64,000 nucleotides of DNA, from the NCBI GenBank assembly GCA_964528155.1, contig CAZGRL010000003.1, positions 37,036-101,035 of the forward strand, in the 5' to 3' direction. The notes under the pieces are model-generated. The model searched no databases, was not told the origin of the DNA, and saw only the letters and a program-made list of their open reading frames with translations. Origin of the DNA: an uncultured Anaerolineaceae bacterium. GTDB taxonomy: Bacteria; Chloroflexota; Anaerolineae; Anaerolineales; E44-bin32. A program made the position numbers and the translations under genes. Below are positions 1,266 to 17,174 of the stretch, one piece after another (the stretch's first letter is position 1; each line of letters begins with the position of its first letter).

Positions 1266-1274
1266 CGAATTGAA

Positions 1275-2252
1275 TCACTCCTGTTTGTGATCTGTGTCAG
1301 AGTCCAGGTCGTGCGGAAGCTTGCGCACGACATATAGGGGGCGGCCTTTCGCCTCGTCATACAGTCTACCGATGTACTCGCCCAGAATCCCGAGCGATAT
1401 GAGCTGGACACCCCCGAGGAAGAGCACGGCGATCAGCGTCGTGGCCTGGCCGAAGAACGCCTGGCTTCCACTCAGGCGGAGGGCGATCACGACGGGGATC
1501 GCCAGCGCGCTGACACCGGCGAAGAGGAAGCCCAGGTAGGTCGCGATCTGCAGCGGAAAGTACGAGAAGCTCGTGATCGCATTCAAGGCAAGCCGCAGCA
1601 TCTTGGTGAACGGATACTTCGTCTTCCCGGCGAAACGCGGCTCCCGATCGTAGGGAACCCCGATCTGACGAAATCCGATCCAGGCCGCCATGCCGCGCGG
1701 GAATCGGTGTCTTTCCCTCATCTGACATAGCGCGTCAGCCGCCTCCCGATCCAAAAGCCGGAAATCCCCCGTGTCCACCGGGATATTGACGTCGGTGATC
1801 CGGTTGATCAGTCGGTAGAAGAGCGCCGCCGTGAATCGCTTGAACCATGTCTCGCCTTCGCGCGAGCTGCGCATGGCGTAGACGACCTGGTAGCCCTCGC
1901 GCCACCGCTTGACAAGCTCGGGGATGAGCTCGGGCGGGTCCTGCAAATCCGAGTCCATGATGACCACGGCCTGGCCGAGGCTGTAATCGAGTCCGGCCGT
2001 CACGGCGACCTGATGACCGAAGTTGCGGGCGAACACAACCGGGCGAACATGATGATCGCTCCGCGCGACCTCCAGGATGGCCTCCGTCGAGCCGTCCGTG
2101 GATCCGTCATCGACCAGGATCAGCTCCCATGCTTCGCCCTCGGCCTGCATGACCTGTGTCACGCGCCGCACGAACTCTGGAAGCGATTCGACCTCATCGA
2201 ACACCGGCGCCACGACCGTGAAGGTCGGCGTCTTGGCTGCTTTACGATTCAT
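1275..2252 (-). CDS. Family 2 glycosyltransferase (polyprenol-phosphate sugar transferase type, GtrB/ArnC/DPM1-like)
   Basis: 325 aa. GT-A motifs VVAPVFDE, LILVDDGSTDGS, MDSDLQDPPE. Two C-terminal TM helices. Confidence 0.85.
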   Translation of the reverse strand: MNRKAAKTPTFTVVAPVFDEVESLPEFVRRVTQVMQAEGEAWELILVDDGSTDGSTEAILEVARSDHHVRPVVFARNFGHQVAVTAGLDYSLGQAVVIMDSDLQDPPELIPELVKRWREGYQVVYAMRSSREGETWFKRFTAALFYRLINRITDVNIPVDTGDFRLLDREAADALCQMRERHRFPRGMAAWIGFRQIGVPYDREPRFAGKTKYPFTKMLRLALNAITSFSYFPLQIATYLGFLFAGVSALAIPVVIALRLSGSQAFFGQATTLIAVLFLGGVQLISLGILGEYIGRLYDEAKGRPLYVVRKLPHDLDSDTDHKQE

Positions 2253-3537
2253 GTCGAATCGTCTCCGTACGTGTCAGCTCGCGATGCAAAGCCTCAAGCG
2301 ACGGCTCGATCACCACCGCCTGTCCCGCGGCCCGCATACCCGCCTGCACGTCCTTGAGCCCGTTCCCCGTGATCAAACACACGACCTGCTCGGTCTCTGT
2401 GACGAGCCCCCTGGCGACAGCCTTGGCCAGCCCGGCGTAGGCGGCAGCCCCGGCCGGCTCGGCGAAGACGGCCGCATCTCGGCCCAGGCTGGCGATCGCC
2501 GCCAGGATCTCAGAATCGGTCACGGTCAGAACCTCACCGGCCGTTTCCCGAACGGCGCGCAACGCACGCAGACCGTCGCGAGGCTGATCAACCGAGATGC
2601 TATCAGCGATCGTGTCAGCCCGGACGGGCCGAATCGCGTTCTCCCCGGATTTGAACGCGTTGTAGATCGCCGCCGAGCCTTCAGATTGCACTCCTATAAG
2701 ACGCGGTGACCGTTCGATCCATCCTAGCGCCATCAGATCCTTGAAGCCCTTGTGCAGCCCGGTGATGATGTTTCCGTCGCCGACCGAGACGAAGACTGAA
2801 TCGGGCGAACGCCATCGTCGCCCATCCCCATCCGGCGGACCCAGCCTGGATGTGAGTTGCTCGCAGATTTCGAATGCCGCCGTCTTCTTGCCCTCGGCCG
2901 TGAACGGATTGTAGCCCGTATTGCGGCAGTACCACCCGAACTCGGCTGAGGCTTCCAGGGTGAGGTCGAACGCCTGGTCATATGTCCCATCGACCAGGAT
3001 GACACGCGCCCCGAAGATCAGGAGCTGGGCTACCTTGGCCGGTGGCGCACTCTTCGGCGCCAGGATCACCGCCGGTTGGCCAGCCGCGGCGGCCATGCCG
3101 GCCAGGGCCGCGCCGGCGTTGCCGGTAGAAGCGGTGGCGACGGTCTCAGCGCCGATCTCCCTGGCACGAGCGACGACGACCGCGCTCGCCCGGTCCTTGA
3201 ACGATGCCGTGGGATTGCGTCCGTCGTCTTTCACCCACAGATGCGCCAGGCCCATGGTTTGTGAGAGTCGTTCGGGCGAGAAGAGCGGCGTCCATCCGAC
3301 GGCTCGCAGCGGTGTGTCGATTAAGCCGGGATCTCGAACCGGCAACAAGGGGACATAGCGCCAGATGGACTCCTCGCGCGACTGTGAGATTCTCTCAGGG
3401 CCAGTCTCCCTGGCGATCGCCGAATAGTCGAGGACGACGTCCAGGTTGGCGCCATCGTCCGGGCAGATATAGGTAACCTCATCCGGCGCGTACTTCCTGC
3501 CGCAACCGGAGCAGACATATCCTGAAAACGTCCCCAT
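2242..3537 (-). CDS. Threonine synthase-like PLP enzyme with N-terminal zinc ribbon
   Basis: 431 aa. CSGCGRKY...YICPDDG zinc ribbon and PLP-lysine motif TASFKDRAS. Overlaps the downstream GT2 gene by 11 nt. Confidence 0.8.
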   Translation of the reverse strand: MGTFSGYVCSGCGRKYAPDEVTYICPDDGANLDVVLDYSAIARETGPERISQSREESIWRYVPLLPVRDPGLIDTPLRAVGWTPLFSPERLSQTMGLAHLWVKDDGRNPTASFKDRASAVVVARAREIGAETVATASTGNAGAALAGMAAAAGQPAVILAPKSAPPAKVAQLLIFGARVILVDGTYDQAFDLTLEASAEFGWYCRNTGYNPFTAEGKKTAAFEICEQLTSRLGPPDGDGRRWRSPDSVFVSVGDGNIITGLHKGFKDLMALGWIERSPRLIGVQSEGSAAIYNAFKSGENAIRPVRADTIADSISVDQPRDGLRALRAVRETAGEVLTVTDSEILAAIASLGRDAAVFAEPAGAAAYAGLAKAVARGLVTETEQVVCLITGNGLKDVQAGMRAAGQAVVIEPSLEALHRELTRTETIRHES

Positions 3538-3546
3538 GCCGGGATA

Positions 3547-4545
3547 CTAGTCCTTTTCGAATGGCATGCCGAGCGCCGCAGGCGGGACGACGCGCATCGA
3601 CCGCAGGACTCTGGCCACGATCATTCGGGCGGCAGGCGGTAGTCCGGCCAGTGTACGATCGACCCACTCGGCGTTGCCGATGTTGACAAGCAGCAATGTC
3701 AAGATCATCAATGGGAAGGGGGCAACCTGAAGCACTTGCGATGGCACGTTGGGAAGCGATGGCTGCAACACAAGCCCAAGCCACTGGAGCAGTCCGAACA
3801 GATAGGCCCCGATGGCGCCCCGGATGGGGTCCCAGCCACCGAAGATCACAAGTGCCAGGGCGATCCATCCGAACCCGTCCAGCCCGCTGATCGTCCCCTT
3901 CCAACCAGCCTTGACGCTGAGAGAAAACGTGGGGCCGGCCAGGCCCACCAACGAGCCCCCGATCACGGTATATGCGTAGCGCATCAAGGGCACGTTGGCG
4001 CCCCGGACAAAAGCGGCTGCCGGGCGTTCGCCGATTCCGCGCAGCATCAATCCGGGCCGCGTCCTGAAAACCCAGAACCAGGCGACGAAGATCAGGACAT
4101 AGCTGATATACACAAGCAGATTCTGCCGGAACAAGAGCGGCCCAAGAACAGGGATTTGACTCAGGAGCGGGATGGAAAGGGCCGGAACGCGGGGACCGGA
4201 GAGCCCCACAAACGGGTTCCCCAAGAAGTAGGCCATGTTCAGGGTCATCAACGCCAGCACATAGCCAACTGCCACCTGTGACTGCTTGAGCGTCAGGCTG
4301 GTGAAAGCCAGGACCAGGGCGACAAGGGCGCCCGTCAGCATGCCGGCCAGGAATCCGAGCAGGACGCTGTTAGTGGATGCGGCCACTGCGAAGGCCGTCA
4401 TGGCTGACAGCACGATGCTCCCATTCACGGACAGGTTGATCACCCCCGCCCGCTCGGTCAGGGTTTCGCCTATGGTGGCGAAGATTATGGGAGCCGCCGC
4501 AGCCAACACACCCGACAGGCCGGTTATGATCGCCGCTGTGTCCAT
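3547..4545 (-). CDS. ABC transporter permease (BMP/nucleoside-type importer)
   Basis: 332 aa, multi-TM, hydrophobic throughout. Operon position next to a second permease, a duplicated ATPase and a BMP binding protein. Confidence 0.85.
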   Translation of the reverse strand: MDTAAIITGLSGVLAAAAPIIFATIGETLTERAGVINLSVNGSIVLSAMTAFAVAASTNSVLLGFLAGMLTGALVALVLAFTSLTLKQSQVAVGYVLALMTLNMAYFLGNPFVGLSGPRVPALSIPLLSQIPVLGPLLFRQNLLVYISYVLIFVAWFWVFRTRPGLMLRGIGERPAAAFVRGANVPLMRYAYTVIGGSLVGLAGPTFSLSVKAGWKGTISGLDGFGWIALALVIFGGWDPIRGAIGAYLFGLLQWLGLVLQPSLPNVPSQVLQVAPFPLMILTLLLVNIGNAEWVDRTLAGLPPAARMIVARVLRSMRVVPPAALGMPFEKD

Positions 4546-4549
4546 ATCC

Positions 4550-5602
4550 CTAACCTAGCTCCCGACGAACCAACCTGCGCCGGGCTCCTTCCATCATCAG
4601 GAAGGCAAGGACCAGGGCACCCTGCAGAACCCCCGAGAGCGCTGAATCGAGTTTGAGTACGATCGGCAACTGGATGCTCCCAATGTTTAGCGCCGCAAAG
4701 AACAGGGATACCGGCGCTGCCCATACGGCTTGGTAGTTGATCAACATGGCGACCAGCAGACCCAGCCAGCCATAGTTGCTTGAGATGCTGGGGATCAGAC
4801 GGTGGTAGACGGCCGTCACTTGGATGGCGCCTGCCACACCGGCAAATACGCCACAAATCAGAAATGCGTTCATCATATAGCGCGCTGTCCGAATTCCCGA
4901 CAGATTGGCCGCGCGCTTGTTTCGGCCGACGGCTTTCAGTCGGAGGCCGAAATAGGTCCCCTGCAACATGAGGAACACGACTACAGTCCCCAGGATTCCG
5001 ATGAGTAGGGCCCACACGCTCAGACGGAGATGAGGCAACGTCGGCATCCACATCTCCTGGGGAAAAGGCACAGTGCCGCTCATCGAGCCGATCCCTGGTC
5101 GCTTCCAGGGGCCGAAGATAAGCCACAGTGTAATGGCGGTCGCCACGAAATCGAGGCCCAGGCCGCCGAAGATCTCGTTAACCCCGCCAAAAGTCTTCAA
5201 GGCACCCGCCAGGCCCGCCCACAACGCGCCGCCGATAGCGCCAGCCATGATGGCGAGCAGGATCATGACCGCTGGGGGAAGGCCGCTACCCTGCACCATG
5301 CGGAGCACACCGGTGGCGAAAATGGCTCCAAGCGTGATCTGCCCCTCCATGCCGATATTCCACAGACCGGCGGCGAATGTCACCAGCAGCCCAGCCGTCG
5401 ATAGCAGCAGAGGCACCCAGGCAACCATGACATTCGAGATGTTGTCAACCGATCCAAAGGCACCGCGTGCTAGTTGATCGAACGCCTGAAAGGGCGGCGC
5501 GCCAGCCAGGACCAACACAGCCACAGTGAAGAGGAATGCCAGTAGGACGGCCCCCAGCCGGAATCCAACGTCGATCCAGCGCGAGCTCTCTCTGACCATC
5601 AT
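4550..5602 (-). CDS. ABC transporter permease (BMP/nucleoside-type importer)
   Basis: 350 aa multi-TM protein, adjacent to its paralogous permease. 4-nt gap to the downstream gene. Confidence 0.85.
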   Translation of the reverse strand: MMVRESSRWIDVGFRLGAVLLAFLFTVAVLVLAGAPPFQAFDQLARGAFGSVDNISNVMVAWVPLLLSTAGLLVTFAAGLWNIGMEGQITLGAIFATGVLRMVQGSGLPPAVMILLAIMAGAIGGALWAGLAGALKTFGGVNEIFGGLGLDFVATAITLWLIFGPWKRPGIGSMSGTVPFPQEMWMPTLPHLRLSVWALLIGILGTVVVFLMLQGTYFGLRLKAVGRNKRAANLSGIRTARYMMNAFLICGVFAGVAGAIQVTAVYHRLIPSISSNYGWLGLLVAMLINYQAVWAAPVSLFFAALNIGSIQLPIVLKLDSALSGVLQGALVLAFLMMEGARRRLVRRELG

Positions 5603-5624
5603 TTCTCCCCGCTCATATGCTGGG

Positions 5625-7091
5625 CTACTTCAGGCCCACCCCGCCGATGAGCTCTCCAAGTCGTTCAACGCTGACCTCCCCCGAGTCGAGAGGCTCCGAC
5701 ACCTTGCCGGCAAAGAAGACCAGAATGCGATCGCTGTAGTGAAGCACTTCTTCGAGATCCGAGGAGACAAAAATCACCGCTGTACCTTCCAGACAGCGCT
5801 CCTTCAGCTTACGCCATGTGAAGATCGCTGATTCCATATCCAGGCCGCGCGTCGGCTGCTCCAGAAGAAGGAGTTTTAGCCCGGAACGCAGCAGGGCCAG
5901 CAACGCCCGCTGCTGGTTCCCACCCGAGAGAGCTTCAACCGGAGACCCCGGCTCACCGCGGATGTTGAACTCATTGATCCCTGCCCGCGCTCTGGCTCGA
6001 CCTTCCTCCCAATCGACGAACATCCCCCTTGAGGCCTGTGTCAGGATGAAATGTTCGGTCAGCGTCATACCCGGGACAAGGCCTTCTTCGAGCCGCGCCG
6101 CCGGCATGTAGCCGCATCCCCGCGCCTTGAAAGCATGGTAGCGCCGTCCGGTCATGTCTTGCCCATCGAGCAGCACCCTGCCGGCGACGGGGCGCACCAG
6201 TCCGGCACAACACTCCAGAAAAAGACGCTGACCACTACCCTCCATTCCCGCCAGCCCGATCACCTCACCCGCGCGGACGGACAATTCGATATCCTGAATC
6301 TGAAGTCTGGGATCCTCCATTGAAACGGTATGAAGTTCCAGCACCACGCGGTCTTCGTAGGTCGGCTTCTTCGGGGCCAGCGCGACCTCCCTGCCAAACA
6401 TCATTTCCACCAGTGTGGACGTCTTGTATGGCGCCTCCGTCTCGCCCACCAGCTTGCCCTCCCGCAAGACGGCGACGCGATGGCACAGTTCTTCGACCTC
6501 TTCCAACTTATGAGAAACGAAAATGACAGTACGACCTTCTTCGGCCAACCGTTGAAGCGTCTTGAACAACTTCTCACGCTGAGGTGCGCTGATCCCCGTG
6601 GTTGGCTCGTCGAGGATCATGACCTGCACACCCAGCCATAGCATTCGCAGGATCTCAAGTTGCTGGCGCTCACCTACGGTAAGAGTGTCCACGTAAGCAT
6701 TTGGATCCAGTGAGAAACCAAACTGCTCACCCAGCTGGCGCAACGCGCGGCGCGCGGTCCTCCGTCGCGGCAGCAGGGCCGAATCACTGCCGATTAGGAA
6801 ATTGTCGATGACTCTCATGGGGGGGAAATCAAGCGGGTCCTGATGCAGCATGCCGACGCCATAGGCAATGGCGTCCGCCGGGGACTTCATGCTCACCGCT
6901 GTTCCGTCAAGTATGATTTGGCCGCTGTCCGGTTCAATGAACCCGGAGAGTACCTTCATCAACGTGCTCTTGCCCGCGCCGTTTTCTCCAAGGAGGCCCT
7001 GGATCGTTCCAGACGGGATGTCGAGCGTGATCCCGGCATTGGCGTGCACGGGGCCGAAGTACTTGTGGATTTCTTTGAGCTCCACCTTCAT
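5625..7091 (-). CDS. ABC transporter ATP-binding protein with two fused ATPase domains
   Basis: 488 aa. Walker A GENGAGKST, Walker B MILDEPT, second-domain signature LSGGNQQR and LLLLEQPTRGLD. Confidence 0.9.
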   Translation of the reverse strand: MKVELKEIHKYFGPVHANAGITLDIPSGTIQGLLGENGAGKSTLMKVLSGFIEPDSGQIILDGTAVSMKSPADAIAYGVGMLHQDPLDFPPMRVIDNFLIGSDSALLPRRRTARRALRQLGEQFGFSLDPNAYVDTLTVGERQQLEILRMLWLGVQVMILDEPTTGISAPQREKLFKTLQRLAEEGRTVIFVSHKLEEVEELCHRVAVLREGKLVGETEAPYKTSTLVEMMFGREVALAPKKPTYEDRVVLELHTVSMEDPRLQIQDIELSVRAGEVIGLAGMEGSGQRLFLECCAGLVRPVAGRVLLDGQDMTGRRYHAFKARGCGYMPAARLEEGLVPGMTLTEHFILTQASRGMFVDWEEGRARARAGINEFNIRGEPGSPVEALSGGNQQRALLALLRSGLKLLLLEQPTRGLDMESAIFTWRKLKERCLEGTAVIFVSSDLEEVLHYSDRILVFFAGKVSEPLDSGEVSVERLGELIGGVGLK

Positions 7092-7161
7092 GATGGGTCC
7101 CGTTTGAACAGGGGGTGGCCGGCGCGCAGCCGGCCCACCCCCTCACGGATCACACTTTCGG

Positions 7162-8451
7162 CTACTGCGACGGAACGCTCTGGCCCTCCATGCCCTCGAG
7201 AAGCTGAGGCAGGTACCAAACTTGCTGGTCGGTGGCCGTTTCACCATCCTGAAGATAGGCGGTGCCGTCCTGCAGATTGATCGGGCCGGTCCACAGATCC
7301 AGGCCGGACCCCAGTTCGCCGATGAACGTGTCCACGGTGGACGAGGCATCAGCGCTCAAACCCTGGCCCTTGGCGAATCCGACTGCCGAGGTGTCCGGGT
7401 TGTTGATGTCCGACCAATCCGGCGGGTTCCAGGCGAACTCCGATTGGAACGTGCCGTCCTGGACCGAATTGATGATCTTCAGGTAGCTTGGCCCCCAGTT
7501 GAAGTACGGCACGCCCAGACACACACTGGGTGCTTCGGCGCAGCCGTCCTTGTAGTCGTAGGAGACCGCCCATACCTGCTGGCCTTGGCCGGCATACTTG
7601 TTGGCCTCCGCCAGCGCCTCGGTGGTGTCAATGCCTGACACAACCACGTCGTAGCCGCTGTTGAAGAAATCATCCGCCACCTGAGTGGGGTCGGAGGTCA
7701 CACCAGGGATGTTGAACCAGAACCCAATCCAGGTCACCTTGAATTGCAGATCGGCGGCATCCTTATTCAGGTAGTTGGTCCAGCAGTACTTCGCACCCAG
7801 ATAGACCGAGGAGGCCAGGCGACGGGTCTCGTCGTTGATCAATGGACCCAGATAGCCGATCTGGCCCGTCTGCGTCGTCAGGGCAGCCGCACAGCCGGCG
7901 ATCATCTTGCCGTAAATCATCTTGCCCATCGTGTTGGTCATGTTCGGGAGGCCCTGGTAGTCCTTCCCGTCCGTCCATGCCTGATCGCCGGAGGCCATGA
8001 TCACCGGGACGTCGGGGTGATTCTGGGCGAACTCGTTGGCGCTGTCCTTCATGTCATCCGAACTGAAGTCGATAATCGTAGCGCCCTGAGACAGCAGGCT
8101 TTCAGCCAGTTGGGCCGGCGTCGTGCCGGGACGGTCAGCCGAGTTCGCTTTGTCGATGTATACGAACTCGAAGCCTGGCAGATTGTCGGCGACATATTGG
8201 GCACCGTCATAGTGCGCCTGGCTCCAGCCATGGTCGTTGTAAGGCCCGACCAGTAACAAACCAAGGACCGGCGGGGCCATCGTCGGTGCTTCGGTCGCCG
8301 GGGCTTCGGTCGCGGCAGCCGGTGGCTGCGTGGGCGCGGGAGCCTGGGTCGGTGGCGCTTGGGTCGGCGTCGCCGCCGGAGCGCAGGCCGCCGCAAGCAT
8401 CACCACGACGGCCGCCACAGCCAGCATGCGCCACATCTTGTTTTCGGGCAT
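7162..8451 (-). CDS. BMP-family ABC substrate-binding lipoprotein (purine nucleoside/nucleobase-type)
   Basis: Start moved to the ATG at 8451 (MPENKMWRML...), 6 nt after GGAGGAG. Signal peptide with lipobox LAAC, Pro/Thr/Ala-rich linker, then a BMP-like body (LLVGPYNDHGWSQ...). Confidence 0.85.
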   Translation of the reverse strand: MPENKMWRMLAVAAVVVMLAAACAPAATPTQAPPTQAPAPTQPPAAATEAPATEAPTMAPPVLGLLLVGPYNDHGWSQAHYDGAQYVADNLPGFEFVYIDKANSADRPGTTPAQLAESLLSQGATIIDFSSDDMKDSANEFAQNHPDVPVIMASGDQAWTDGKDYQGLPNMTNTMGKMIYGKMIAGCAAALTTQTGQIGYLGPLINDETRRLASSVYLGAKYCWTNYLNKDAADLQFKVTWIGFWFNIPGVTSDPTQVADDFFNSGYDVVVSGIDTTEALAEANKYAGQGQQVWAVSYDYKDGCAEAPSVCLGVPYFNWGPSYLKIINSVQDGTFQSEFAWNPPDWSDINNPDTSAVGFAKGQGLSADASSTVDTFIGELGSGLDLWTGPINLQDGTAYLQDGETATDQQVWYLPQLLEGMEGQSVPSQ

Positions 8452-8551
8452 TTCTAACTCCTCCATTAGTTTTCATTCATGATCATTATTCGGCTCAGGG
8501 ATCGGATCTCTACGGAGTGACCCACCTCCTTTCAGGATCGGATCAGGATGG

Positions 8552-9508
8552 TCAAGGGAGGATCCACGTTCCAGTCTCGCCGGCCAATGCCCGGCCGATG
8601 TTCTGCGGATCGGTGATCAGGGCCTCACGGCCGCCCCGCTCCAAGTACCCGATGATCGCCCGGACCTTGGGCTCCATCGATCCTTTGGCGAAGTGACCTT
8701 CGGCCAGATACTGCCTGGCTTCCGCCAGCGTCATCCGGTCCAGCCATCGTTGATCCGGCTTATTGTAGTTTAGAGCCACCTTTTCGACTGCCGTGGTGAT
8801 CAGGAACAAGTCGGCTTGAATGCTGGTGGCCATCAGCGCCGCGCCGAAGTCTTTGTCAATAACGGCCTCGACACCCACCAGGCCCCCGCTTTCGTCCTCA
8901 ACTACAGGGATACCCCCGCCGCCGTTACTGATGACAACGAAACCGGATCGGATGAGGGTCTCGATCGCGTCTCGCTCTACGATCCGCTTCGGTAGCGGCG
9001 ACGGGACGACCCTGCGCCAGCCCCGTCCGGCGTCTTCAACCACGGCCCAGCCGTCAGCCTGGCGGTGCTGGGAGGCCGTGGGCTCGTCCATGAAGGATCC
9101 GATCGGTTTACTCGGACTCTTGAAAGCCGGATCATCGCGATCGACCAGCGCCTGCGTGATAACCGTGGCGGCCTGCCTTTCCAGGCCGCGCTTGTGGAAC
9201 TCGTTGTAAAGCGCCTGCTGAAACATGTACCCGATCGCACCTTGCGTGTCGGCGCCGCAATAGTCGAGTGGAACCGGATGCAGTTCGTGGATCGCCAGCT
9301 CGGTGCGGCGCAAGATGAACCCCACCTGCGGCCCGTTGCCGTGCGTGATGACGACGTTCCACCCGGCCTCGATCATATCGGTGATCCGGGCCATCGACTC
9401 GACAGCCGCGGCGTACTGATCCGGCACGGTCCGATGGGCCTTGTCTTTGATCAGTGAATTGCCGCCCACGGCGACGACAGCGATCTTGCCTCCATTGGCA
9501 TGACTCAT
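8552..9508 (-). CDS. arcC: Carbamate kinase
   Basis: 318 aa. KIAVVAVGGNSL and ITHGNGPQVG motifs of the carbamate kinase / amino-acid kinase fold. Confidence 0.9.
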   Translation of the reverse strand: MSHANGGKIAVVAVGGNSLIKDKAHRTVPDQYAAAVESMARITDMIEAGWNVVITHGNGPQVGFILRRTELAIHELHPVPLDYCGADTQGAIGYMFQQALYNEFHKRGLERQAATVITQALVDRDDPAFKSPSKPIGSFMDEPTASQHRQADGWAVVEDAGRGWRRVVPSPLPKRIVERDAIETLIRSGFVVISNGGGGIPVVEDESGGLVGVEAVIDKDFGAALMATSIQADLFLITTAVEKVALNYNKPDQRWLDRMTLAEARQYLAEGHFAKGSMEPKVRAIIGYLERGGREALITDPQNIGRALAGETGTWILP

Positions 9509-9524
9509 TGACTCGGTCTCCTGC

Positions 9525-10505
9525 TCAGCGCATGGTCAGGGCCATGACGGCCTTCTGCACATGCATCCGGTTTTCCGCCTCATCGTAGACGACGCTCTGC
9601 GGGCCGTCGATCACCGCATTCGACACCTCGACCTCACGATCGGCCGGCAGAGGGTGCATGTAGATGGCGTCCGGTTTGGCCAGAGCCATCTTCCGTTCAT
9701 CGGTGATCCAGGATTCGTACTTCTTGATGATCCGAGCTCCCTCATCTTGATCCGTCGTCGTCAGCAGGGCCCCCCACGACTTGGCGTAAACGATGTCCGC
9801 ATCCTTGAAGCCGGCCTCCATGTCGTCGACGACCTCGAACCCTGCGCCGAACTTGGCCGCCTGGCGCCGGGCCTCTTCCATGACCCCGGGCATCAACTTG
9901 AATTCGGGGGGATGGGCCAGCACAACGTCCAGCCCGAAGCGCGGCATTTGCAGGATGAGCGACTGGGGCACAGAGATCGGCTTCTGATATGAAGCGGCAT
10001 AGGCCCACGACACAACCATCTTCTTCCGCCTCAAGTCGCGTCCCTTCTTCTCGACGATCGTCAGCAAGTCAGCCAGGATCTGGAAGGGGTGATAGATCTC
10101 GCATTGCATGTTCAGAACGGGCACCCGGCTGTGCCGGGCGACATCGTTCAGGTATTGGTTCCCCACTCCCCAATCGACATGTCGAATGGCGATCCCGTCG
10201 AAGTAGCGGCCGAAGATCTCGCCGATCTCTTTGGGCGTGTCTCCATGGGCGATCTGAGTGGTTTTCGCCTCGATGAACGCAGCATGCCCGCCGAGCTGGG
10301 CCATCCCCGCTTCGAAAGACCCGCGTGTGCGCGTGCTGCTGAAGAAGAACAGCATCGCCAGGACTTTGTCTCGCAGGTAGGGATGCGGTTCTCCCAGCGC
10401 CCGCTTGTGCTTGAGATCGAGGGCGACATCCAGAACAGTCTCAACCTCTTCCCGGCTGAAATCCAGGTCGCCGATTAGATCTCGCCCGCGTAAGTCGGTC
10501 TGCAT
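9525..10505 (-). CDS. Non-canonical carbamoyltransferase (OTC superfamily; AOTCase/SOTCase/YgeW-like signature)
   Basis: 326 aa. Carbamoyl-phosphate motifs SSTRTR and HPFQ are present. The OTC ornithine motif DxxxSMG is replaced by YAKSWG, and HCLP by HPLPADR. Confidence 0.8.
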   Translation of the reverse strand: MQTDLRGRDLIGDLDFSREEVETVLDVALDLKHKRALGEPHPYLRDKVLAMLFFFSSTRTRGSFEAGMAQLGGHAAFIEAKTTQIAHGDTPKEIGEIFGRYFDGIAIRHVDWGVGNQYLNDVARHSRVPVLNMQCEIYHPFQILADLLTIVEKKGRDLRRKKMVVSWAYAASYQKPISVPQSLILQMPRFGLDVVLAHPPEFKLMPGVMEEARRQAAKFGAGFEVVDDMEAGFKDADIVYAKSWGALLTTTDQDEGARIIKKYESWITDERKMALAKPDAIYMHPLPADREVEVSNAVIDGPQSVVYDEAENRMHVQKAVMALTMR

Positions 10506-10517
10506 CTGTCCTCCACG

Positions 10518-10587
10518 TTTAGCTGTCAGGCTTCAGCACTCAGCTTTCGGCCCTCAGCATTCAGCTCTCAGCTTTCTGTTGTCAATT
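10518..10587. repeat. Heptanucleotide tandem array, 10 units, consensus NTCAGCT (AGCTGAN on the coding strand)
   Basis: TTTAGCT GTCAGGC TTCAGCA CTCAGCT TTCGGCC CTCAGCA TTCAGCT CTCAGCT TTCTGTT GTCAATT. Ends 3 nt from the GGAGG of gene 9525-10505. Confidence 0.8.
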
Positions 10588-10644
10588 CGAGTGTTCGGTC
10601 TCCGGTCTCTTTGGTCGCAAACTTCAAGGCAGTCCCCCAATACT

Positions 10645-10714
10645 CTTAGCTTGTTGCTTATTGCTCATTGCTGATAGCTGTCAGCTATTAGCTGTCAGCT
10701 TTCAGTTGTCAGCT
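10645..10714. repeat. Heptanucleotide tandem array, 10 units, same consensus
   Basis: CTTAGCT TGTTGCT TATTGCT CATTGCT GATAGCT GTCAGCT ATTAGCT GTCAGCT TTCAGTT GTCAGCT. The last unit overlaps the stop codon at 10713-10715. Contains the palindrome ATAGCTGTCAGCTAT (10674-10688). Confidence 0.8.
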
Positions 10715-11666
10715 ATCCCTCCATCTTCCCCAGCACGAGCGCCAGAAGCGCCATCCGCATCACGACGCCGTTGAAGGCCTCGGCCCAGTAGCGCGCATGG
10801 CGGGTGTAATCGACCTCCTCCAGCAACTCGTCCATCCTGGGCAGCGAGTGAAGGATGAGCGAGTCGGGCTTGGCTTTGCGCATCAGGGCCTTGGTGACCT
10901 GATAGTTTGCCGGCGTCATGCCCACATCGCCCTTGCGCTCATCGCGCGACTTGGTGTAGTCCGGCTGAACGACAGGCTCCATGTACAGAACGTCGGCCTC
11001 GGCGATGGCCTGATCGACGTGTTCGATCTCGCGGTAGCGCAGGTTGAGATCATCCAGTTCCTTCTTAAACTCGTCCGTCAGGGACATCTCGGGCGGAGAA
11101 ACATACCTGGCCTGGATGTCGAACTGCGACATGGCGTAGCTGATCGAATGCATCGTCCGCATGCGCATGTCGCCGATGAGCAGGAAGGTCAAACCGTCCA
11201 GGCGACCCTTCTCCTTGAGGATGGTGTACATATCCGTCAAGACCTGGGTCGGATGCTCGCCCCATCCGTCGCCGCAGTTGATCACCGGCACGCTCGACCA
11301 GCGCGCCGCCTCAGCCGGTGCCCCCTGCTGGAAGTGACGCATGGCGATGACGTCGCCGTAGTACTCCAGCATGTGCACGGTGTCCTTGATCGACTCCTGG
11401 TAGAAGTCGCCGGCCCGGGTCATTTTGGCATCCGAGAAACCCGTCACATGGCCGCCCAGCCGATGCATTGCCGCCTCGGTCGCCAGGCGCGTCCGGGTAG
11501 ATGGCTGGTAGAAAGCCGTCACCAGCGTTTTGCTGGTCAACATGTCCGTATTGCGACGGTCGCGCGCGAACGGAGCGAGCTCATCCGCCACCTGGAAAAC
11601 CCTGAAGAACTCCTCTCGTTCGAATCCTTTGAGCGACAAGATGTCACGCCCTGCGAAACTTCTCAT
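10713..11666 (-). CDS. Aspartate carbamoyltransferase-like paralogue with an altered second-substrate motif
   Basis: 317 aa. STRTR, HPTQ and HSLPR are present. The ATCase Asp-binding R-x-Q-x-E-R region reads LYMEPVVQPDY, so the Arg is missing. Confidence 0.8.
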   Translation of the reverse strand: MRSFAGRDILSLKGFEREEFFRVFQVADELAPFARDRRNTDMLTSKTLVTAFYQPSTRTRLATEAAMHRLGGHVTGFSDAKMTRAGDFYQESIKDTVHMLEYYGDVIAMRHFQQGAPAEAARWSSVPVINCGDGWGEHPTQVLTDMYTILKEKGRLDGLTFLLIGDMRMRTMHSISYAMSQFDIQARYVSPPEMSLTDEFKKELDDLNLRYREIEHVDQAIAEADVLYMEPVVQPDYTKSRDERKGDVGMTPANYQVTKALMRKAKPDSLILHSLPRMDELLEEVDYTRHARYWAEAFNGVVMRMALLALVLGKMEG

Positions 11667-11757
11667 CTTTCTCTTTCTCCTTCATGGGATATGGAGTGTG
11701 TTTCTGTTCCAGCGCCGGATGATCGCCCGGCCTGATCGCGCCGCCACGCGCGTCGGA

Positions 11758-12510
11758 TCAACTGCGACGGCCCACTCGTCGAACGACATGGAAACGAAAC
11801 GTGCCCGGCAGGAAGAAGCTGTGCGAGTGATCGATCACACCGCCGTCCTCGGCGTACAAGAAAGCCTCAAAGCGCAACAACACATCACCGCGTTGAACCT
11901 TCAGCTTACGACCCACGTCGGCCGACGCCGGCACAGCCGTGATCTCGGACCTTGAGAGTCCGAGGGCCGGTGTCCCTTGCTTCAGCAGTAGATCGAGCAC
12001 TGAGCCGCGGAAGCCTTCCTCCAGAGCACTTTCCGAGACGACACCGTCAGGGACGACGTCTACCAGGTAGGCGACGGGCCGGCTATCGGCTTCGATGACC
12101 CGGGAGACATCGAGAACGATTGCCCCCGGAGACCCTCCGAACAGCTGTTGTTCCTCCGGGTCGGATGCTCGGCGATTGATGGTCAGGTCTCCCATTTCGA
12201 CCTCGAGACCAATACGCCCGGCCAGCGTCTCGATGCTCTCCAGCACTTCGAGCCCGGCATCGATGATCGGCAGTGGCCGGGCCACAACCGTCCCCACACC
12301 CTGGCGGCGAATGATCACGCCGCGCTCCTCGAAGGCACGCATCGCCTCGCGCAGCGTGGCGCGCGAGACGCCGAGCTCACGCGATAATGCTGGCTCCGAT
12401 GGCAGGAACGTGCCCGGTGAAGTATGAGCCAGGATGTTCTCCAGGGCCTCAGCCGTGCGCTGGTACAACGGGCTACCCTTTTCAGATCGCTCCCGTCGCG
12501 TCTGCCTCAT
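11758..12510 (-). CDS. GntR-family transcriptional regulator (HutC/UTRA-type)
   Basis: 250 aa. Winged HTH LPSEPALSRELGVSRATLREAMRAFEERGVI plus a roughly 150 aa effector domain. Confidence 0.85.
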   Translation of the reverse strand: MRQTRRERSEKGSPLYQRTAEALENILAHTSPGTFLPSEPALSRELGVSRATLREAMRAFEERGVIIRRQGVGTVVARPLPIIDAGLEVLESIETLAGRIGLEVEMGDLTINRRASDPEEQQLFGGSPGAIVLDVSRVIEADSRPVAYLVDVVPDGVVSESALEEGFRGSVLDLLLKQGTPALGLSRSEITAVPASADVGRKLKVQRGDVLLRFEAFLYAEDGGVIDHSHSFFLPGTFRFHVVRRVGRRS

Positions 12511-12526
12511 GCCGAATTCCTTCTGC

Positions 12527-14329
12527 TCATCCCAGGCTTTCTTCGAGAGGCACGATCGAATGCTGTGTGACGTCCACCAGGCCCTTGTCCGAGATGCGCA
12601 ACTCCGGGATCACCACCAAAGCCAGCAGACTGAGTTGCATGTTGGCGTTGTTCAACTCGCAGCCGCAATCTCGCAGGCCCGCCAGGATGCCCTCAGCCTT
12701 GTCGGCGACGACATCCGCTCGCTCGTCCGACATCAATCCGGCGATCGGAAGCTCGAGCAGGGCCTCAACCCTCCCTTCGCGCACCACGATCTGCCCGCCA
12801 CCGACTCTGGCCAATTCATTGGCCGCCATGGCCATTGAGGCTTCGTCCGTCCCGACCACGAGCATGTGATGTGAGTCGTGCGCGACGGTCGAGCCGGCGG
12901 CACACGGAACCTTCAGGCCAAAACCCTGGACAAAGCCCAATTGGATCGTCCCATTGCCTCGGTGCCTCTCGACAAGAGCCACCTTCGCCAGATCTCGGCT
13001 TGTGTCCGCTTTGAGCTCGCCGCAGTTCGGTTTGAGATCCATCTGGATGTGCCGCGTCGGGGCCTGGTTCTCAATGATTCCGATCACATTCGCTCGTACG
13101 GCATCCGAATCGGAAGCGTGGATCACGAAGTCGGACGGCTCCAGGGGCCGCTTGAGGTGCACCGAATCCTTGACGTCCGCTGGGAACTCGAAGTCAGGCA
13201 ACTCGATTTTCAGGCGGCCGGCCTCGGCGGCGAGCACGCCGCGAGCGATGACTTGCTCCGCTCGGAGGTTCGCCAAGTCGCTCACCAGGAGAATGTCGGC
13301 CCAACGCCCGGGCGCGATCTGTCCGACCTCGTCGGCGACCCCGAAGTGCTCTGCGGTGTTCAGCGTCGCCATCTGTATGGCCGTCATCGGCGTGATCCCT
13401 TGCTTGATGGCATGCCGAACCACACGGTCCATGTGACCGTCGTGCACCAGCGTCCCCGAGTGGCTGTCGTCAGTGACCAGCATGAAATGCCGCGAATCGA
13501 GACCGAGTTTCGTGATCGCCGGGGCTTGGGCGGCCACGTCGTACCAGGCCGATCCAAGACGCAGCATCGCCTTCATACCCTGTCGGACGCGCGCCACGGC
13601 ATCCTGCACACGCGTGCCTTCGTGGTCGTCGGCAGCCCCTCCGGCGGCGTATGCGTGGAACTCGAGCCCGAGATCCGGCGATGGATAGTGCCCACCAATG
13701 ACTTTGCCGGCCGCTTCGGTCGCTGCCATTTCGGCCAGAACCTGGTCGTCGTCCTGAACCACCCCGTGGAAGTTCATCATCTCTCCCAGCCCGATCACAC
13801 CGGGCCAGGCCAGCGCTTCGGCGATTTCAGCCGGACCGAGCACCGCTCCGGGTGTCTCGAGGCCCGGGCTCGAGGGCACACACGATGGCACCTCGACCCA
13901 CACGTGGATCGGTTGGAGCACGGCCTCGTCGTGCATCAATCGCACGCCCCTCAAGCCGAAGACGTTGGCGATCTCGTGAGGGTCGATGAACATCCCAGTC
14001 GTCCCGTGGGGCAGGACAGCGCGGACGAACTCGGTCACAGTGACCATACCCGACTCGACGTGCATATGTCCGTCGAGCAGTCCCGGGACCAGATAGCGGC
14101 CGCCGGCTTCGATGACTTGTGTTCCCTCACCAATCGTGTGACTCGCGTCTTCTCCGACGTAGGCGATCCGCCCTGCGCTCACGGCGACGTCCGTGTGCTC
14201 AATGATCTCGCCCGACTGCACACACACCCAACGACCATCGCGAATGACCAGATTGGCCGATTGACGGCCCATGGCGACATCGATCAATCGGCGCCTCAAC
14301 CCCTGTCGAGATTTCACGTCCATGGTCAC
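12527..14329 (-). CDS. ade: Adenine deaminase
   Basis: 600 aa amidohydrolase. LLDGHMHVESG metal motif and the two-domain length typical of Ade. Confidence 0.85.
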   Translation of the reverse strand: MTMDVKSRQGLRRRLIDVAMGRQSANLVIRDGRWVCVQSGEIIEHTDVAVSAGRIAYVGEDASHTIGEGTQVIEAGGRYLVPGLLDGHMHVESGMVTVTEFVRAVLPHGTTGMFIDPHEIANVFGLRGVRLMHDEAVLQPIHVWVEVPSCVPSSPGLETPGAVLGPAEIAEALAWPGVIGLGEMMNFHGVVQDDDQVLAEMAATEAAGKVIGGHYPSPDLGLEFHAYAAGGAADDHEGTRVQDAVARVRQGMKAMLRLGSAWYDVAAQAPAITKLGLDSRHFMLVTDDSHSGTLVHDGHMDRVVRHAIKQGITPMTAIQMATLNTAEHFGVADEVGQIAPGRWADILLVSDLANLRAEQVIARGVLAAEAGRLKIELPDFEFPADVKDSVHLKRPLEPSDFVIHASDSDAVRANVIGIIENQAPTRHIQMDLKPNCGELKADTSRDLAKVALVERHRGNGTIQLGFVQGFGLKVPCAAGSTVAHDSHHMLVVGTDEASMAMAANELARVGGGQIVVREGRVEALLELPIAGLMSDERADVVADKAEGILAGLRDCGCELNNANMQLSLLALVVIPELRISDKGLVDVTQHSIVPLEESLG

Positions 14330-14359
14330 CTCAGCCCTTGCTTCTCCCGGGCCTTCATC

Positions 14360-15736
14360 TCAGCCGTTCACCAACCGCATCGCTGCCCTGTTGTGCGCTT
14401 CGACCAATGCATCGTGGTCAAGGCTCACCAAGCGACCCTGTCTCACGACCGCATTTCCATGCACAAAATTGAAGTCGACGTCGCCCGGGTTGCAGAAAAC
14501 GGCAGCCGCGACCGGGTCATGCCGGGCACCCGCGAAACCGATCCGATCGAGGTCGATGGCGACGAAGTCGGCGCACTTCCCCGCTTCGAGTGAGCCCAGA
14601 TCGGTCCGCCCCAGAACCGCGGCGCCACCAAGAGTAGCGATTTCAAGGACCTCGCGAGCGCTGAGAAGATCCCCGGCTCCATGGACCTCAGGTGCAACCG
14701 GGACAGCCACCCTCGACAGCAGCATTGCTTGCCGCGCCTCGGCCAGCAAATGCGAGCTGTCATTGCTGGCCGATCCATCGACTCCCAGACCGATGTCCAC
14801 GCCCGCTTTCAGATAGCGTCGCACAGGGGCAATCCCGGACGCCAGACGCATGTTCGACGAAGGGCAATGTGCGACCCCGGTCCGAGCCGCCGCCATCCGC
14901 GCGACTTCATCGGGCAGAATGTGAACGGCGTGGGCGAACCAGACATCGTCGCCGGCCCAATCCAGACTCTCGACGAAAGCGAGGGGCCGCAGACCGAATT
15001 TCTCCAGGCAGAACGATTCCTCATCCAGAGTCTCGGCCAGATGTGTGTGCAGACGCACGTTGTATGCGCGGGCAAGCGAGGCCGCCTCGCGCATCAGCTC
15101 CGGCGTGACCGAAAATGGCGAGCATGGTGCGATGACCACCTGGACCATGGCGCCCGGCTTTGGATCATGGAATGCCTCGATCACCCGGCGGCAGTCTTTC
15201 AAGATCTCATCTTCGGATTCGACGACACGGTCGGGCGGTAGGCCTCCCTGGCTCTCACCCAGGCTCATCGAGCCGCGTGAAGCATGCAGGCGCAGGCCAA
15301 CCTCACCCGCAGCCTGGATCTCGTCATCCAACCGGCAATCGTTCGGGAAGATGTAGAGATGGTCGGATGCGGTCGTACAGCCCGAGAGCGCCAGCTCGGC
15401 CAGCCCAAGCTGCGTCGAAACGCGGACGTCATCTGCCCGCATCCTGGCCCAGATCGGGTACAGGGTCTTGAGCCAACGGAACAGGTCGGCGTCTTGAGCC
15501 TGCGGAATCACCCGTGTCAGGGTCTGATAGAGGTGATGGTGAGTGTTGATCAAGCCGGGGAGGAGCAGATGGCGAGAAAGATCGAGGACTTCGTCAGCGG
15601 TCTCGGGGAGTTCGTTCGTGGGGCCGACCTGGTCAATCCAGCCATCCCGGACGAAGAGCCCGCCATCACGGATCTCCCTGCGGCCGGCGTCCATCGTGAC
15701 CAGGCATTCGGCGTGACGTACCAGGAGCGTCGACAT
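14360..15736 (-). CDS. Amidohydrolase of the guanine/8-oxoguanine deaminase/SsnA group
   Basis: Start set at the internal ATG 15736 (MSTLLVRHAECLVTMD), preceded by GGAAGG. LINTHHHLYQT HxH motif and HLAETLDE. The track ORF extends to 15784. Confidence 0.8.
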   Translation of the reverse strand: MSTLLVRHAECLVTMDAGRREIRDGGLFVRDGWIDQVGPTNELPETADEVLDLSRHLLLPGLINTHHHLYQTLTRVIPQAQDADLFRWLKTLYPIWARMRADDVRVSTQLGLAELALSGCTTASDHLYIFPNDCRLDDEIQAAGEVGLRLHASRGSMSLGESQGGLPPDRVVESEDEILKDCRRVIEAFHDPKPGAMVQVVIAPCSPFSVTPELMREAASLARAYNVRLHTHLAETLDEESFCLEKFGLRPLAFVESLDWAGDDVWFAHAVHILPDEVARMAAARTGVAHCPSSNMRLASGIAPVRRYLKAGVDIGLGVDGSASNDSSHLLAEARQAMLLSRVAVPVAPEVHGAGDLLSAREVLEIATLGGAAVLGRTDLGSLEAGKCADFVAIDLDRIGFAGARHDPVAAAVFCNPGDVDFNFVHGNAVVRQGRLVSLDHDALVEAHNRAAMRLVNG

Positions 15737-15762
15737 GCCACCTTCCAGGGGATGCTGGGCCG

Positions 15763-15791
15763 AGTGTAACACTCCGACCGGCAAGCGTCAA
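15763..15791 (-). promoter_or_regulatory. Sigma-70-like promoter for the amidohydrolase-ade-gntR operon
   Basis: Minus strand reads TTGACG, a 17-nt spacer, then TACACT. The -10 element ends about 27 nt upstream of the ATG at 15736. Confidence 0.5.
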
Positions 15792-15802
15792 TTGTCAGAC
15801 AA
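15792..15802. promoter_or_regulatory. Palindrome TTGTCAGACAA abutting the -35; candidate GntR/HutC-type operator
   Basis: Arms TTGTC/GACAA are perfect inverted repeats. The GT-N-AC core resembles HutC-subfamily operators. The half-site TGTCAG recurs in the 10645-10714 array. Confidence 0.3.
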
Positions 15803-15962
15803 CATCCAAGCGTATCCAACGGAATGTTGCTCGCCCTGGGGCAGATCTGGTGGACTTGGGTTTGTCGGGCGGATCCGCCGCCCAAAACCCGTGTCCACCT
15901 ATCTTCGCAGGAAAGTGCGACAGACTTCCGGCTGCGGCCACAACATCCCAAATAGAGACGGC

Positions 15963-16013
15963 GATCACCCGCTCGGCCTGGCAGGCAGCCGCCGAAGGGA
16001 GGAGCGGGTGATC
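15963..16013 (-). terminator. Hairpin downstream of folD (possible terminator)
   Basis: 12-bp arms GATCACCCGCTC/GAGCGGGTGATC, followed on the minus strand by TCTCTATTTGGG, a weak U tract. Confidence 0.35.
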
Positions 16014-16038
16014 AGATTGTTCGAGCCAGTAGATCGGG

Positions 16039-16917
16039 CTAGGGCCGCTTGCGTGAGGCGGCCCGCAGAGTATTCTGGAGCAGAAGGGTGATGGTCATTG
16101 GCCCCACCCCTCCCGGCGAGGGGGAAATCGCGCCGGCGACCTCCAGCGCTTCGTCAAAGTCGACGTCTCCAACCTGGCGATAGCCCTTCTTGGCGGTCGG
16201 ATCGTCGACCCGGTTCGTCCCTACATCGATAACATACGCCCCCGGCTTGATCCAGTCCCCTTTGATCATCCTCGCCCGCCCAATGGCAGCGATCAAGATA
16301 TCCGCCCCGCGACAAACGGACGGTAGATCAGCGGTTTTCGAGTGGCAGATCGTGACCGTGGCGTTTTCCTTGACCAGGAGTAGGGCCGCCGGCATCCCGA
16401 CGATGTTAGATCGCCCCACGACGACCGCATTCGCTCCTTCGAGTTTGGCCCCAGCCTTTCGCAACAGCACCAGGCATCCTGCCGGCGTGCACGGGACGAA
16501 CAAAGGCTCACGCCCCTTCTGCGCCAGGCGGCCGATATTCAGAGGATGGAAGCCATCGACGTCTTTCTCGATGCTGATCGCCTTGAGGATCGTCTCTTCG
16601 TCAAGACCAGCCGGCAGCGGAAGCTGGACGAGGATACCGTGCACCGCCGGGTCGGCGTTCAGGTCAGACACGAGTTTCTCGACCTCCGCCTGGGAGGCGT
16701 CGGCGGGCAGTTCATGCCCGAATGACTCGATCCCAACCTCGGCGCAAGCCTTCCGCTTAGCGCGTACGTACGTGTGAGATGCCGGGTTGTCGCCGACAAG
16801 AACGGTGGCCAGACCCGGGCGTGGGCCACCGTCGGCCCGGAGAGCCTCGACGCCGGCCGCGATCTCGGAGCGCAGCTCCGCCGCGATTGCTTTCCCATCA
16901 ATGATCTTCGCTGTCAT
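16039..16917 (-). CDS. folD: Bifunctional methylene-THF dehydrogenase / methenyl-THF cyclohydrolase
   Basis: Start at ATG 16917 ([12 protein letters not shown]), after GGGAGAGG. Also [16 protein letters not shown] and [12 protein letters not shown]. Confidence 0.9.
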
Positions 16918-17174
16918 GTTCCTCTCCCGTGCACATGTTGGATACACGCGCCACGACAATCCAGCCACTTCGTCAGGCGGCGGATTTCGGGCTGATTCGA
17001 ATTATCGTTCGGGATGCATCACACCAACAAGGACGTAGATCCGCTGGCAGGCTGACACAAGTCCTCATTCGCCCTGAAGATAGCCCCGAAAGTTCAGTAG
17101 ACTTACTCGATCTTGATTGTGGTCCAGAAGAGCCGGCCGGTGATTGAAGCGTGTCAAAGTCGAGGCATGTATGA

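Follow-up and report, generated by a model that had tools for sequence, protein, structure and literature searches.

Paired, probably catabolic transcarbamylases in a putative reductive urate pathway locus of an uncultured Anaerolineaceae bacterium

We analyzed two neighboring transcarbamylase genes in a 64,000-nucleotide stretch of DNA (the window) from an uncultured Anaerolineaceae bacterium of the phylum Chloroflexota: P0002 (10713 to 11666) and P0001 (9525 to 10505), both on the minus strand and both with open reading frames that translate cleanly. On balance, we judge it probable that both gene products are catabolic transcarbamylases and belong to a Chloroflexota form of the reductive urate (2,8-dioxopurine) pathway. 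Their most likely role is a catabolic one, feeding carbamate kinase from putative ureido intermediates of reductive urate breakdown. The evidence consists of sequence motifs, clade membership, gene linkage, and a co-occurrence pattern across genomes, all of which were observed directly. In both families the carbamoyl-phosphate site is invariant and the second-substrate site is changed yet equally invariant, which supports a catabolic function.

The pseudo-aspartate carbamoyltransferase P0002

An earlier note on this DNA had quoted unusual motifs from both genes and proposed that aspartate and ornithine are improbable substrates for either enzyme. All of the quoted motifs are present on translation, and orthologues from six or more phyla show no variation in the unusual ones. 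P0002 carries QPSTRTR, GEHPTQ, LHSLPRMDE, and LYMEPVVQPDYTKSRDER, P0001 carries SSTRTR, HPFQ, YAKSWG, and HPLPADR, and each protein has both Pfam transcarbamylase domains. Aligned to Escherichia coli PyrB, the Pyrococcus abyssi aspartate carbamoyltransferase (ATCase), and the PyrB of its own genome, P0002 retains an intact carbamoyl-phosphate site: S56 to T59 (STRT), R110 (equivalent to R105), H138 (H134), and Q141 (Q137). The aspartate ligands are largely replaced. Arg229 has become Pro231, Gln231 has become Val233, and in the 80s loop, a change the earlier note did not mention, Lys83-Lys84 has become Phe88-Tyr89 with an inserted Asp87; R170, the equivalent of Arg167, is the sole ligand kept among R167, R229, Q231, and K84. 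The note had allowed that the canonical ligands might be present but shifted. The Gln of the P0002 VVQ motif does stand one position from Gln231, but no register shift recovers an Arg, so misalignment does not explain the loss. Across 33 P0002 orthologues from several phyla (75 to 88% identity), the motifs STRTR, TRAGD-Y-QE, GDGWGEHPTQ, GD-RMRTMH, EPVVQ-DY-K, and LHSLPR-DE are all invariant. The conservation of the changed motifs points to a constrained new pocket rather than to chance or decay.

That P0002 is nevertheless a divergent genuine ATCase, either a second anabolic isozyme or a catabolic enzyme acting on N-carbamoyl-aspartate, is highly improbable. Such an identity would agree with its score against TIGR00670, which lies just above the cut-off (242.1 versus 236.95), with public annotations, which name all members of the family aspartate carbamoyltransferase, and with its predicted fold. 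The AF2 model (pLDDT 84, pTM 0.88, with low-confidence 80s and 240s loops) has the ATCase fold and is closest to PALA-bound P. abyssi ATCase (1ML4; TM, 0.86 to 0.89; 40% identity). All PDB matches to the model are true ATCases, and hence no pseudo-ATCase structure exists. However, P0002 falls below the NF002032 cut-off (220.2 versus 263), the replacements of K84, R229, and Q231 are invariant, and HPLP reads HSLP. The genomic setting also differs from that of a PyrB: the partners of the P0002 gene are catabolic, with no linkage to pyr genes, and a canonical pyrB lies in a pyr operon elsewhere.

The genome encodes six transcarbamylases in all: a canonical ArgF (DTWVSMG, HCLPAHR), a canonical PyrB (TRVQKERF, HPLPR) beside pyrC and pyrF on contig C67, P0002, P0001, and YgeW-like paralogues on contigs C43 and C35. 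P0002 and P0001 are indeed unlikely to use aspartate or ornithine, as the earlier note proposed from the sequence. As a side observation, the PyrB on C67 has STRTSSSF, a sequence shared with human CAD, where bacteria usually have STRTRLSF, and the contig end beside pyrB is a long G/C homopolymer run that is probably an assembly artifact.

In an IQ-TREE phylogeny, P0002 groups with Nocardioides protein A1SH59 (support 94/95), apart from both the true ATCases and ureidoglycine carbamoyltransferase (UGTCase), and is joined to its sister P0142 with support of 100/97. Pseudo-ATCases in purine-catabolic gene clusters were described by Barba et al. in 2013 (PMC4016543), so the earlier note was not right to call it unusual for an ATCase-like paralogue to stand in a catabolic operon; the Nocardioides protein is an orthologue of P0002. 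In that study, A1SH59 of Nocardioides JS614 (“ATC_III_HSLP”) was noted to have a ygeW homologue, xdhABC, and hyuA as neighbors, and no function was assigned to it; it was never assayed and was the sole member of its type known in 2013 (PMC4016543). The resemblance to P0002 goes beyond clade. The A1SH59 sequence in the supplement contains IYMEPVVQADY, GDMRMRTMHS, GDGWGEHPTQ, and HSLPRMDEL; HSLP stands in place of HPLP, RxQ is lost, and a genuine PyrB coexists in the genome. In both cases a ygeW homologue adjoins the gene in a purine-catabolic setting (near A1SH59, xanthine dehydrogenase [XDH] genes). The P0002 setting differs in adding carbamate kinase, two pyridoxal phosphate (PLP) enzymes, and an F420-type upper pathway.

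The same study assayed Rxyl_2847 of Rubrobacter xylanophilus as a UGTCase, converting allantoate and phosphate to ureidoglycine and carbamoyl phosphate (PMC4016543). This enzyme, too, is catabolic and ATCase derived, splitting one ureido group off a diureido acid, and it resembles P0002 in its H(S/T)LP motif, its 130s-loop Trp, its neighboring carbamate kinase gene, and its purine-catabolic setting. A review of transcarbamylases suggested that the Ser/Thr of H(S/T)LP contacts a ureido nitrogen. Even so, it is very unlikely that P0002 is itself a UGTCase cleaving allantoate in an allantoin pathway, an identity that we rejected on tree and motifs. P0002 lies outside the Rxyl_2847 clade, lacks the GX[SC] motif (PVV stands where UGTCase has GCS) and the 80s-loop Lys that UGTCase keeps, and has no allantoinase neighbor; of the features that mark UGTCase membership, only H(S/T)LP is common to both. 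UGTCase belongs to the oxidative allantoin pathway, whereas this genome appears to be without such a pathway: the uricase domain (PF01014) is absent from the genome, no allantoinase scores above cut-off, and the neighbors of P0002 are reductive-pathway genes.

The YgeW-clade transcarbamylase P0001

The earlier note had placed P0001 on the acetylornithine transcarbamylase (AOTCase)/SOTCase/YgeW side of the family, and both motifs and phylogeny agree. In a 20-sequence tree, an inclusive clade (support 87/94) unites P0001 with E. coli YgeW and leaves AOTCase and the ornithine transcarbamylases (OTCs) outside. The P0001 segments NMQC, YAKSW, TTQIAHG, and SWAYAASYQKPISVPQ align with E. coli YgeW (Q160, K270, 80s loop, and proline-rich loop), and in 28 P0001 orthologues K242-W244-G245, NxQC, H284-L286-P287-A288-R290, and the proline-rich loop are invariant. 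The likeness to the E. coli YgeW-YqeA pair thus extends over the QIAHG 80s loop, NxQC, the proline-rich loop, the KSW lysine, and an adjoining carbamate kinase. P0001 differs in length (326 amino acids versus 396 in E. coli YgeW), being without the extra N- and C-terminal helices and without two helices of the 240s loop. It also scores far below the cut-offs of the YgeW models NF005538 and TIGR03316 (187 bits versus 453 and 180 versus 500, respectively). In the Phycisphaerales, the pseudo-ATCase is partnered by a true YgeW of the long form that is the sister of the E. coli protein, a pairing that supports functional equivalence of the short and long forms. Most likely, P0001 is a YgeW equivalent, with 2,3-diureidopropionate as its presumed substrate.

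Databases would label P0001 an ornithine carbamoyltransferase. Membership among the acetylornithine or ornithine transcarbamylases that serve arginine metabolism (of the ArgF′ type, or a catabolic OTC of the arginine deiminase route) is about as improbable for P0001 as a genuine ATCase identity is for P0002. The best NCBIfam matches are to OTC and AOTCase (256 and 250 bits), YAKSWGAL and DERKMAL are common to P0001 and AOTCase, and carbamate kinase is encoded next door. Yet every one of these scores is below its curated cut-off (OTC, 256 versus 306 and 244 versus 281; AOTCase, 250 versus 288). The OTC motifs DxxxSMG and HCLP are missing, with YAKSWG and HPLP in their place, and the AOTCase 80s insertion with Trp77 is absent. 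A canonical ArgF is present in the genome, P0001 groups with E. coli YgeW, and the surrounding genes are purine related, with no arginine deiminase in the operon. P0001 may or may not have a trefoil knot in its C-terminal domain, as YgeW does: the proline-rich loop signature is present, but the AF2 model of P0001 is mediocre (pLDDT 75, with strand 47 to 58 wrongly helical), and its Foldseek TM scores to OTC and AOTCase are alike (0.66 to 0.73) and do not tell the two apart.

For YgeW itself, the earlier note's statement that such enzymes lack an agreed substrate has been overtaken by two 2025 studies, which show that in the reductive urate pathway E. coli YgeW phosphorolyses 2,3-diureidopropionate and, with YqeA, yields ATP (bioRxiv 10.1101/2025.04.24.650524; PMC12507026). 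The two differ only on the ureido group cleaved: the 3-ureido group, giving 3-amino-2-ureidopropanoate, or the 2-ureido group, giving albizziin (bioRxiv 10.1101/2025.04.24.650524; PMC12507026). Neither mentions an ATCase-like member, and their neighborhood coloring by PF00185 and PF00291 would not separate one (bioRxiv 10.1101/2025.04.24.650524; PMC12507026). Clusters of SsnA with an F420 “luciferase-family” reductase have been noted in Chloroflexota (PMC12507026).

Gene neighborhood and distribution

The two transcarbamylase genes lie in a one-strand series of genes with the following features, given in window coordinates.

14360 to 15784, minus strand: 8-oxoguanine deaminase family amidohydrolase (NF006055, 671 bits; cut-off, 532)
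12527 to 14329, minus strand: adenine deaminase (TIGR01178, 498 bits; cut-off, 472)
11758 to 12510, minus strand: GntR/HutC-family regulator (GntR and UTRA domains)
10713 to 11666, minus strand: P0002, pseudo-ATCase of the Nocardioides A1SH59 type (motifs, profile scores, tree, alignment, AF2 model)
10506 to 10712, minus strand: P0002-P0001 spacer of 207 bp (two arrays of AGCTGA(C/G) heptamers)
9525 to 10505, minus strand: P0001, short-form (326 amino acids) YgeW-clade transcarbamylase (motifs, profile scores, tree, alignment)
8552 to 9508, minus strand: carbamate kinase (TIGR00746, 373 bits; cut-off, 358; NF009007, 402 bits; cut-off, 266)
3547 to 8466, minus strand: BMP/PnrA-type ABC importer (binding protein, 7162 to 8466; ATPase, 5625 to 7091; permeases, 4550 to 5602 and 3547 to 4545)
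2242 to 3537, minus strand: threonine-synthase-like (ThrC-like) PLP enzyme of fold type II (second paralogue; the likely housekeeping thrC is on contig C37)
1275 to 2252, minus strand: GT2 glycosyltransferase between the two PLP genes (synteny)
1 to 1265, minus strand: 5′ part of a 489-amino-acid PLP enzyme (PALP domain; the gene continues past the left edge of the window)

Transcription thus runs from the two deaminases through the regulator to P0002, P0001, and carbamate kinase, and on to the importer, the ThrC-like enzyme, the glycosyltransferase, and the 489-amino-acid PLP enzyme. Urate is the product in characterized members of the 8-oxoguanine deaminase family. The carbamate kinase gene, directly downstream of P0001, is the single copy in the genome; the enzyme converts carbamoyl phosphate and ADP to ATP.

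Relatives of the pseudo-ATCase occur in at least 575 species genomes of at least six phyla. A homologue search with the single protein gave only relatives of at least 84% identity, and a search with representatives showed wider diversity: at 50% identity the family comprises two full-length clusters, followed by a gap down to relatives at 44 to 49%, most of which also have an altered 80s loop and lack RxQ. Neighborhoods were counted for the best 80 of the at least 575 relatives (74 to 89% identical), after antisense open reading frame artifacts in GC-rich loci had been filtered out. These 80 come from Chloroflexota, Planctomycetota, Actinomycetota, Spirochaetota, Verrucomicrobiota, and Thermotogota. 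Among the 64 loci whose downstream flank reaches 2.5 kb or more, a YgeW-clade gene is present in 54 (immediately downstream in 36) and carbamate kinase in 51. Further recurrent neighbors are the ThrC-like PLP enzyme, a PALP enzyme of ∼490 amino acids, an XdhD-like hydroxylase with an FAD subunit, SsnA-like amidohydrolases, a cyclic amidohydrolase, and YgfK or an F420-dependent LLM reductase. The trio of pseudo-ATCase, YgeW-clade enzyme, and carbamate kinase occurs together with XDH-like genes, YgfK or F420 LLM reductase, SsnA, and cyclic amidohydrolase in Spirochaetota, Actinomycetota, and other Chloroflexota. One Spirochaetota locus encodes XDH, cyclic amidohydrolase, pseudo-ATCase, the ∼490-amino-acid PALP enzyme, a YgeW-like protein, carbamate kinase, YgfK, SsnA, and the ThrC-like enzyme; this is the E. 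coli gene set with other parts exchanged for YgeY and YgeX.

Several of the remaining window features are also syntenic among the 80 loci. The GntR/HutC regulator is directly upstream of the pseudo-ATCase in 44, the ABC importer genes accompany it in 31 to 37, the ThrC-like gene is linked to it in 35, and the family of the 489-amino-acid enzyme is nearby in about 33. In the Phycisphaerae, carbamate kinase, ThrC-like, and pseudo-ATCase genes form triplets. The 489-amino-acid enzyme has a weak PALP domain with only distant cysteine synthase/CBS matches, and no NCBIfam model matches it at E ≤ 1e−25. No YgeX-type diaminopropionate ammonia-lyase scores above cut-off anywhere in the genome, where the best match is the ThrC-like gene of the operon; the thrC on C37 is a better thrC match than this gene, which is a candidate stand-in for YgeX. 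A second, more divergent threonine-synthase-related PLP family, with an N-terminal Cys-rich CxGCG...CP motif, is encoded immediately upstream of the pseudo-ATCase, or at a distance of two genes, in loci L089, L091, and L092 (Chloroflexota genomes G253, G349, and G160) and in L058; it is a subfamily distinct from the ThrC-like gene of the window. The GT2 gene keeps its position between the two PLP genes in 19 loci, all from Anaerolineae; five other loci have a GT2-like gene separating the two transcarbamylase genes. No role in purine catabolism is obvious for the GT2 gene of the window, and it is doubtful that it belongs to the pathway. The spacer between the two transcarbamylase genes is 10 to 100 bp in most related loci, versus 207 bp here, and its heptamer arrays give TRF periods of 7 and 14. 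A scan of window positions 1 to 17000, spacer included, matched no Rfam family.

The window begins within an array of minus-strand genes of ∼52 kb on its contig (C3). To the left of the window, this array holds a true SsnA (504 bits; cut-off, 444), a D-hydantoinase (520 bits; cut-off, 393), and a 928-amino-acid XdhD-like hydroxylase with further XDH subunits. Between the XDH subunits and SsnA (C3:10400-27400) are an LLM-class F420 oxidoreductase, CofD, CofE, and an NADPH-dependent F420 reductase; these embedded F420 genes fit an F420-driven reduction step in place of YgfK. Like the E. coli reductive urate module, the array combines SsnA, an XdhD-like gene, and a hydantoinase. It differs in having a second, ATCase-derived transcarbamylase, an F420 LLM reductase instead of YgfK, and PLP enzymes of other subfamilies standing in for the absent YgeX.

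Elsewhere in the genome, one YgeW-like paralogue (C43:3048-5305) is beside a true YgeY (365 bits; cut-off, 321), and the other (C35:15395-25638) is beside an SsnA-like amidohydrolase, an XDH Mo subunit, and a UbiD-family decarboxylase. These extra paralogues may reflect several ureide routes in one genome. The array also contains, at C3:27671-33922 and 6 to 10 kb from the window edge, the D-hydantoinase together with a class III aminotransferase (583 bits; cut-off, 472) and a CoA-acylating methylmalonate-semialdehyde dehydrogenase (529 bits; cut-off, 448), a trio that resembles a beta-amino-acid or pyrimidine-type catabolic branch inside a purine array.

It is possible to read the locus around this trio instead. 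P0002 might then act in reductive pyrimidine or beta-amino-acid catabolism, phosphorolysing N-carbamoyl-beta-alanine or, after transamination, a ureidomalonate-type ureido acid, and so replace beta-ureidopropionase. The co-location of a dihydropyrimidinase-type hydantoinase, a class III omega-aminotransferase, and methylmalonate-semialdehyde dehydrogenase in the same one-strand array is consistent with this reading. We consider it unlikely, although less so than the ATCase, UGTCase, and arginine alternatives. The three genes are not among the recurrent pseudo-ATCase neighbors in other phyla, where the conserved partners are instead the YgeW-clade enzyme, carbamate kinase, PLP fold type II enzymes, XDH, SsnA, and YgfK. 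Moreover, the retention of the R167 equivalent speaks for a substrate with an alpha-carboxylate.

Proposed pathway and its implications

In the reductive urate pathway that we favor, purines would be imported and then deaminated by adenine deaminase and the 8-oxoguanine-type deaminase. Conversion via urate would follow, carried out by the XdhD-like hydroxylase, the F420-dependent reductase, SsnA, and the hydantoinase, whose same-strand genes are found just left of the window. The predicted product of this upper route is 2,3-diureidopropionate, which bears two ureido groups. P0001 and P0002 would each phosphorolyse one ureido group off as carbamoyl phosphate, the single adjoining carbamate kinase would convert carbamoyl phosphate to ATP, and the two PLP enzymes would deaminate the resulting diaminopropionate-type product. 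Because the R167 equivalent is kept, the beta-carboxylate ligands are lost, and H(S/T)LP and the 130s-loop Trp are present, P0002 is expected to act on 2,3-diureidopropionate, or on its monoureido product, at the C2 ureido group. It would thus remove the C2 ureido group from a substrate with a neutral ureido or amine side chain, in a step that is the same as, or parallel to, the one performed hydrolytically by YgeY in E. coli. A fully phosphorolytic, anaerobic breakdown of urate, with the pseudo-ATCase acting at C2 (N-alpha), the short YgeW acting at C3, and two carbamoyl phosphates giving two ATP per purine through one carbamate kinase, is a more tentative proposal, conceivable but somewhat doubtful as a whole. 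What we infer here is which substrates are used, in what order the two ureido groups are cleaved, and how much ATP results.

Co-occurrence was assessed in 401 sampled Chloroflexota genomes, 26 with pseudo-ATCase and 375 without. SsnA (E ≤ 1e−90) was found in 19 of the 26 versus 52 of the 375. Four of the seven apparent exceptions were inspected: XDH genes are beside the trio of pseudo-ATCase, YgeW-clade enzyme, and carbamate kinase in all four, YgfK-like genes are present in three, and a divergent SsnA-like gene or another amidohydrolase is beside the trio in three. YgeY is missing from 13/26 pseudo-ATCase genomes versus 2/52 SsnA-positive genomes without pseudo-ATCase (present in 13/26 and 50/52, respectively); like the SsnA counts, these are phylogenetically nonindependent, and the YgeY-lacking genomes represent about five genera or families. 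The pseudo-ATCase therefore seems capable of sparing YgeY, which is dispensable almost only in its presence.

This nonindependence weighs against a role for the pair in reductive urate breakdown, and so do several other points. YgeY directly adjoins the pseudo-ATCase in 10 of the 26 sampled genomes (10 of the 13 that carry YgeY) and also in loci L072 and L086. The pseudo-ATCase is thus no simple replacement for YgeY, and we rejected the strict form of that idea; two ureido groups would not call for three ureido-cleaving enzymes. In the present genome, the standard route could be served by YgeY and the YgeW-like paralogue on C43. In some compact clusters, no hydantoinase was seen within 10 kb. 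The 240s loop of the P0002 family retains an invariant K239 and a near-invariant R241, and carboxylate binding is still possible there. Finally, HyuA yields the (R)-isomer, and ATCase-type enzymes act on L-amino acids instead.

If the fully phosphorolytic scheme is correct, two ATP would be gained per purine, versus one in the E. coli and Clostridium route, and the pseudo-ATCase clade, an orphan since 2013 and mislabeled pyrB, would receive its first function. A system with two transcarbamylases could also help to resolve the regiochemistry of YgeW, and the orphan enzyme group would gain candidate substrates that are defined and purchasable. Hundreds of environmental genomes, from Anaerolineae, Gaiellales, Phycisphaerae, Spirochaetota, and others, carry a pseudo-ATCase under the name aspartate carbamoyltransferase. 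This misnaming inflates their apparent capacity for pyrimidine synthesis and hides a purine fermentation trait. A variant of the reductive urate pathway that conserves more energy would be relevant to the choice of enzymes for engineered urate-lowering strains, and it would bear on how anaerobes in sediment and sludge live on nucleobases.

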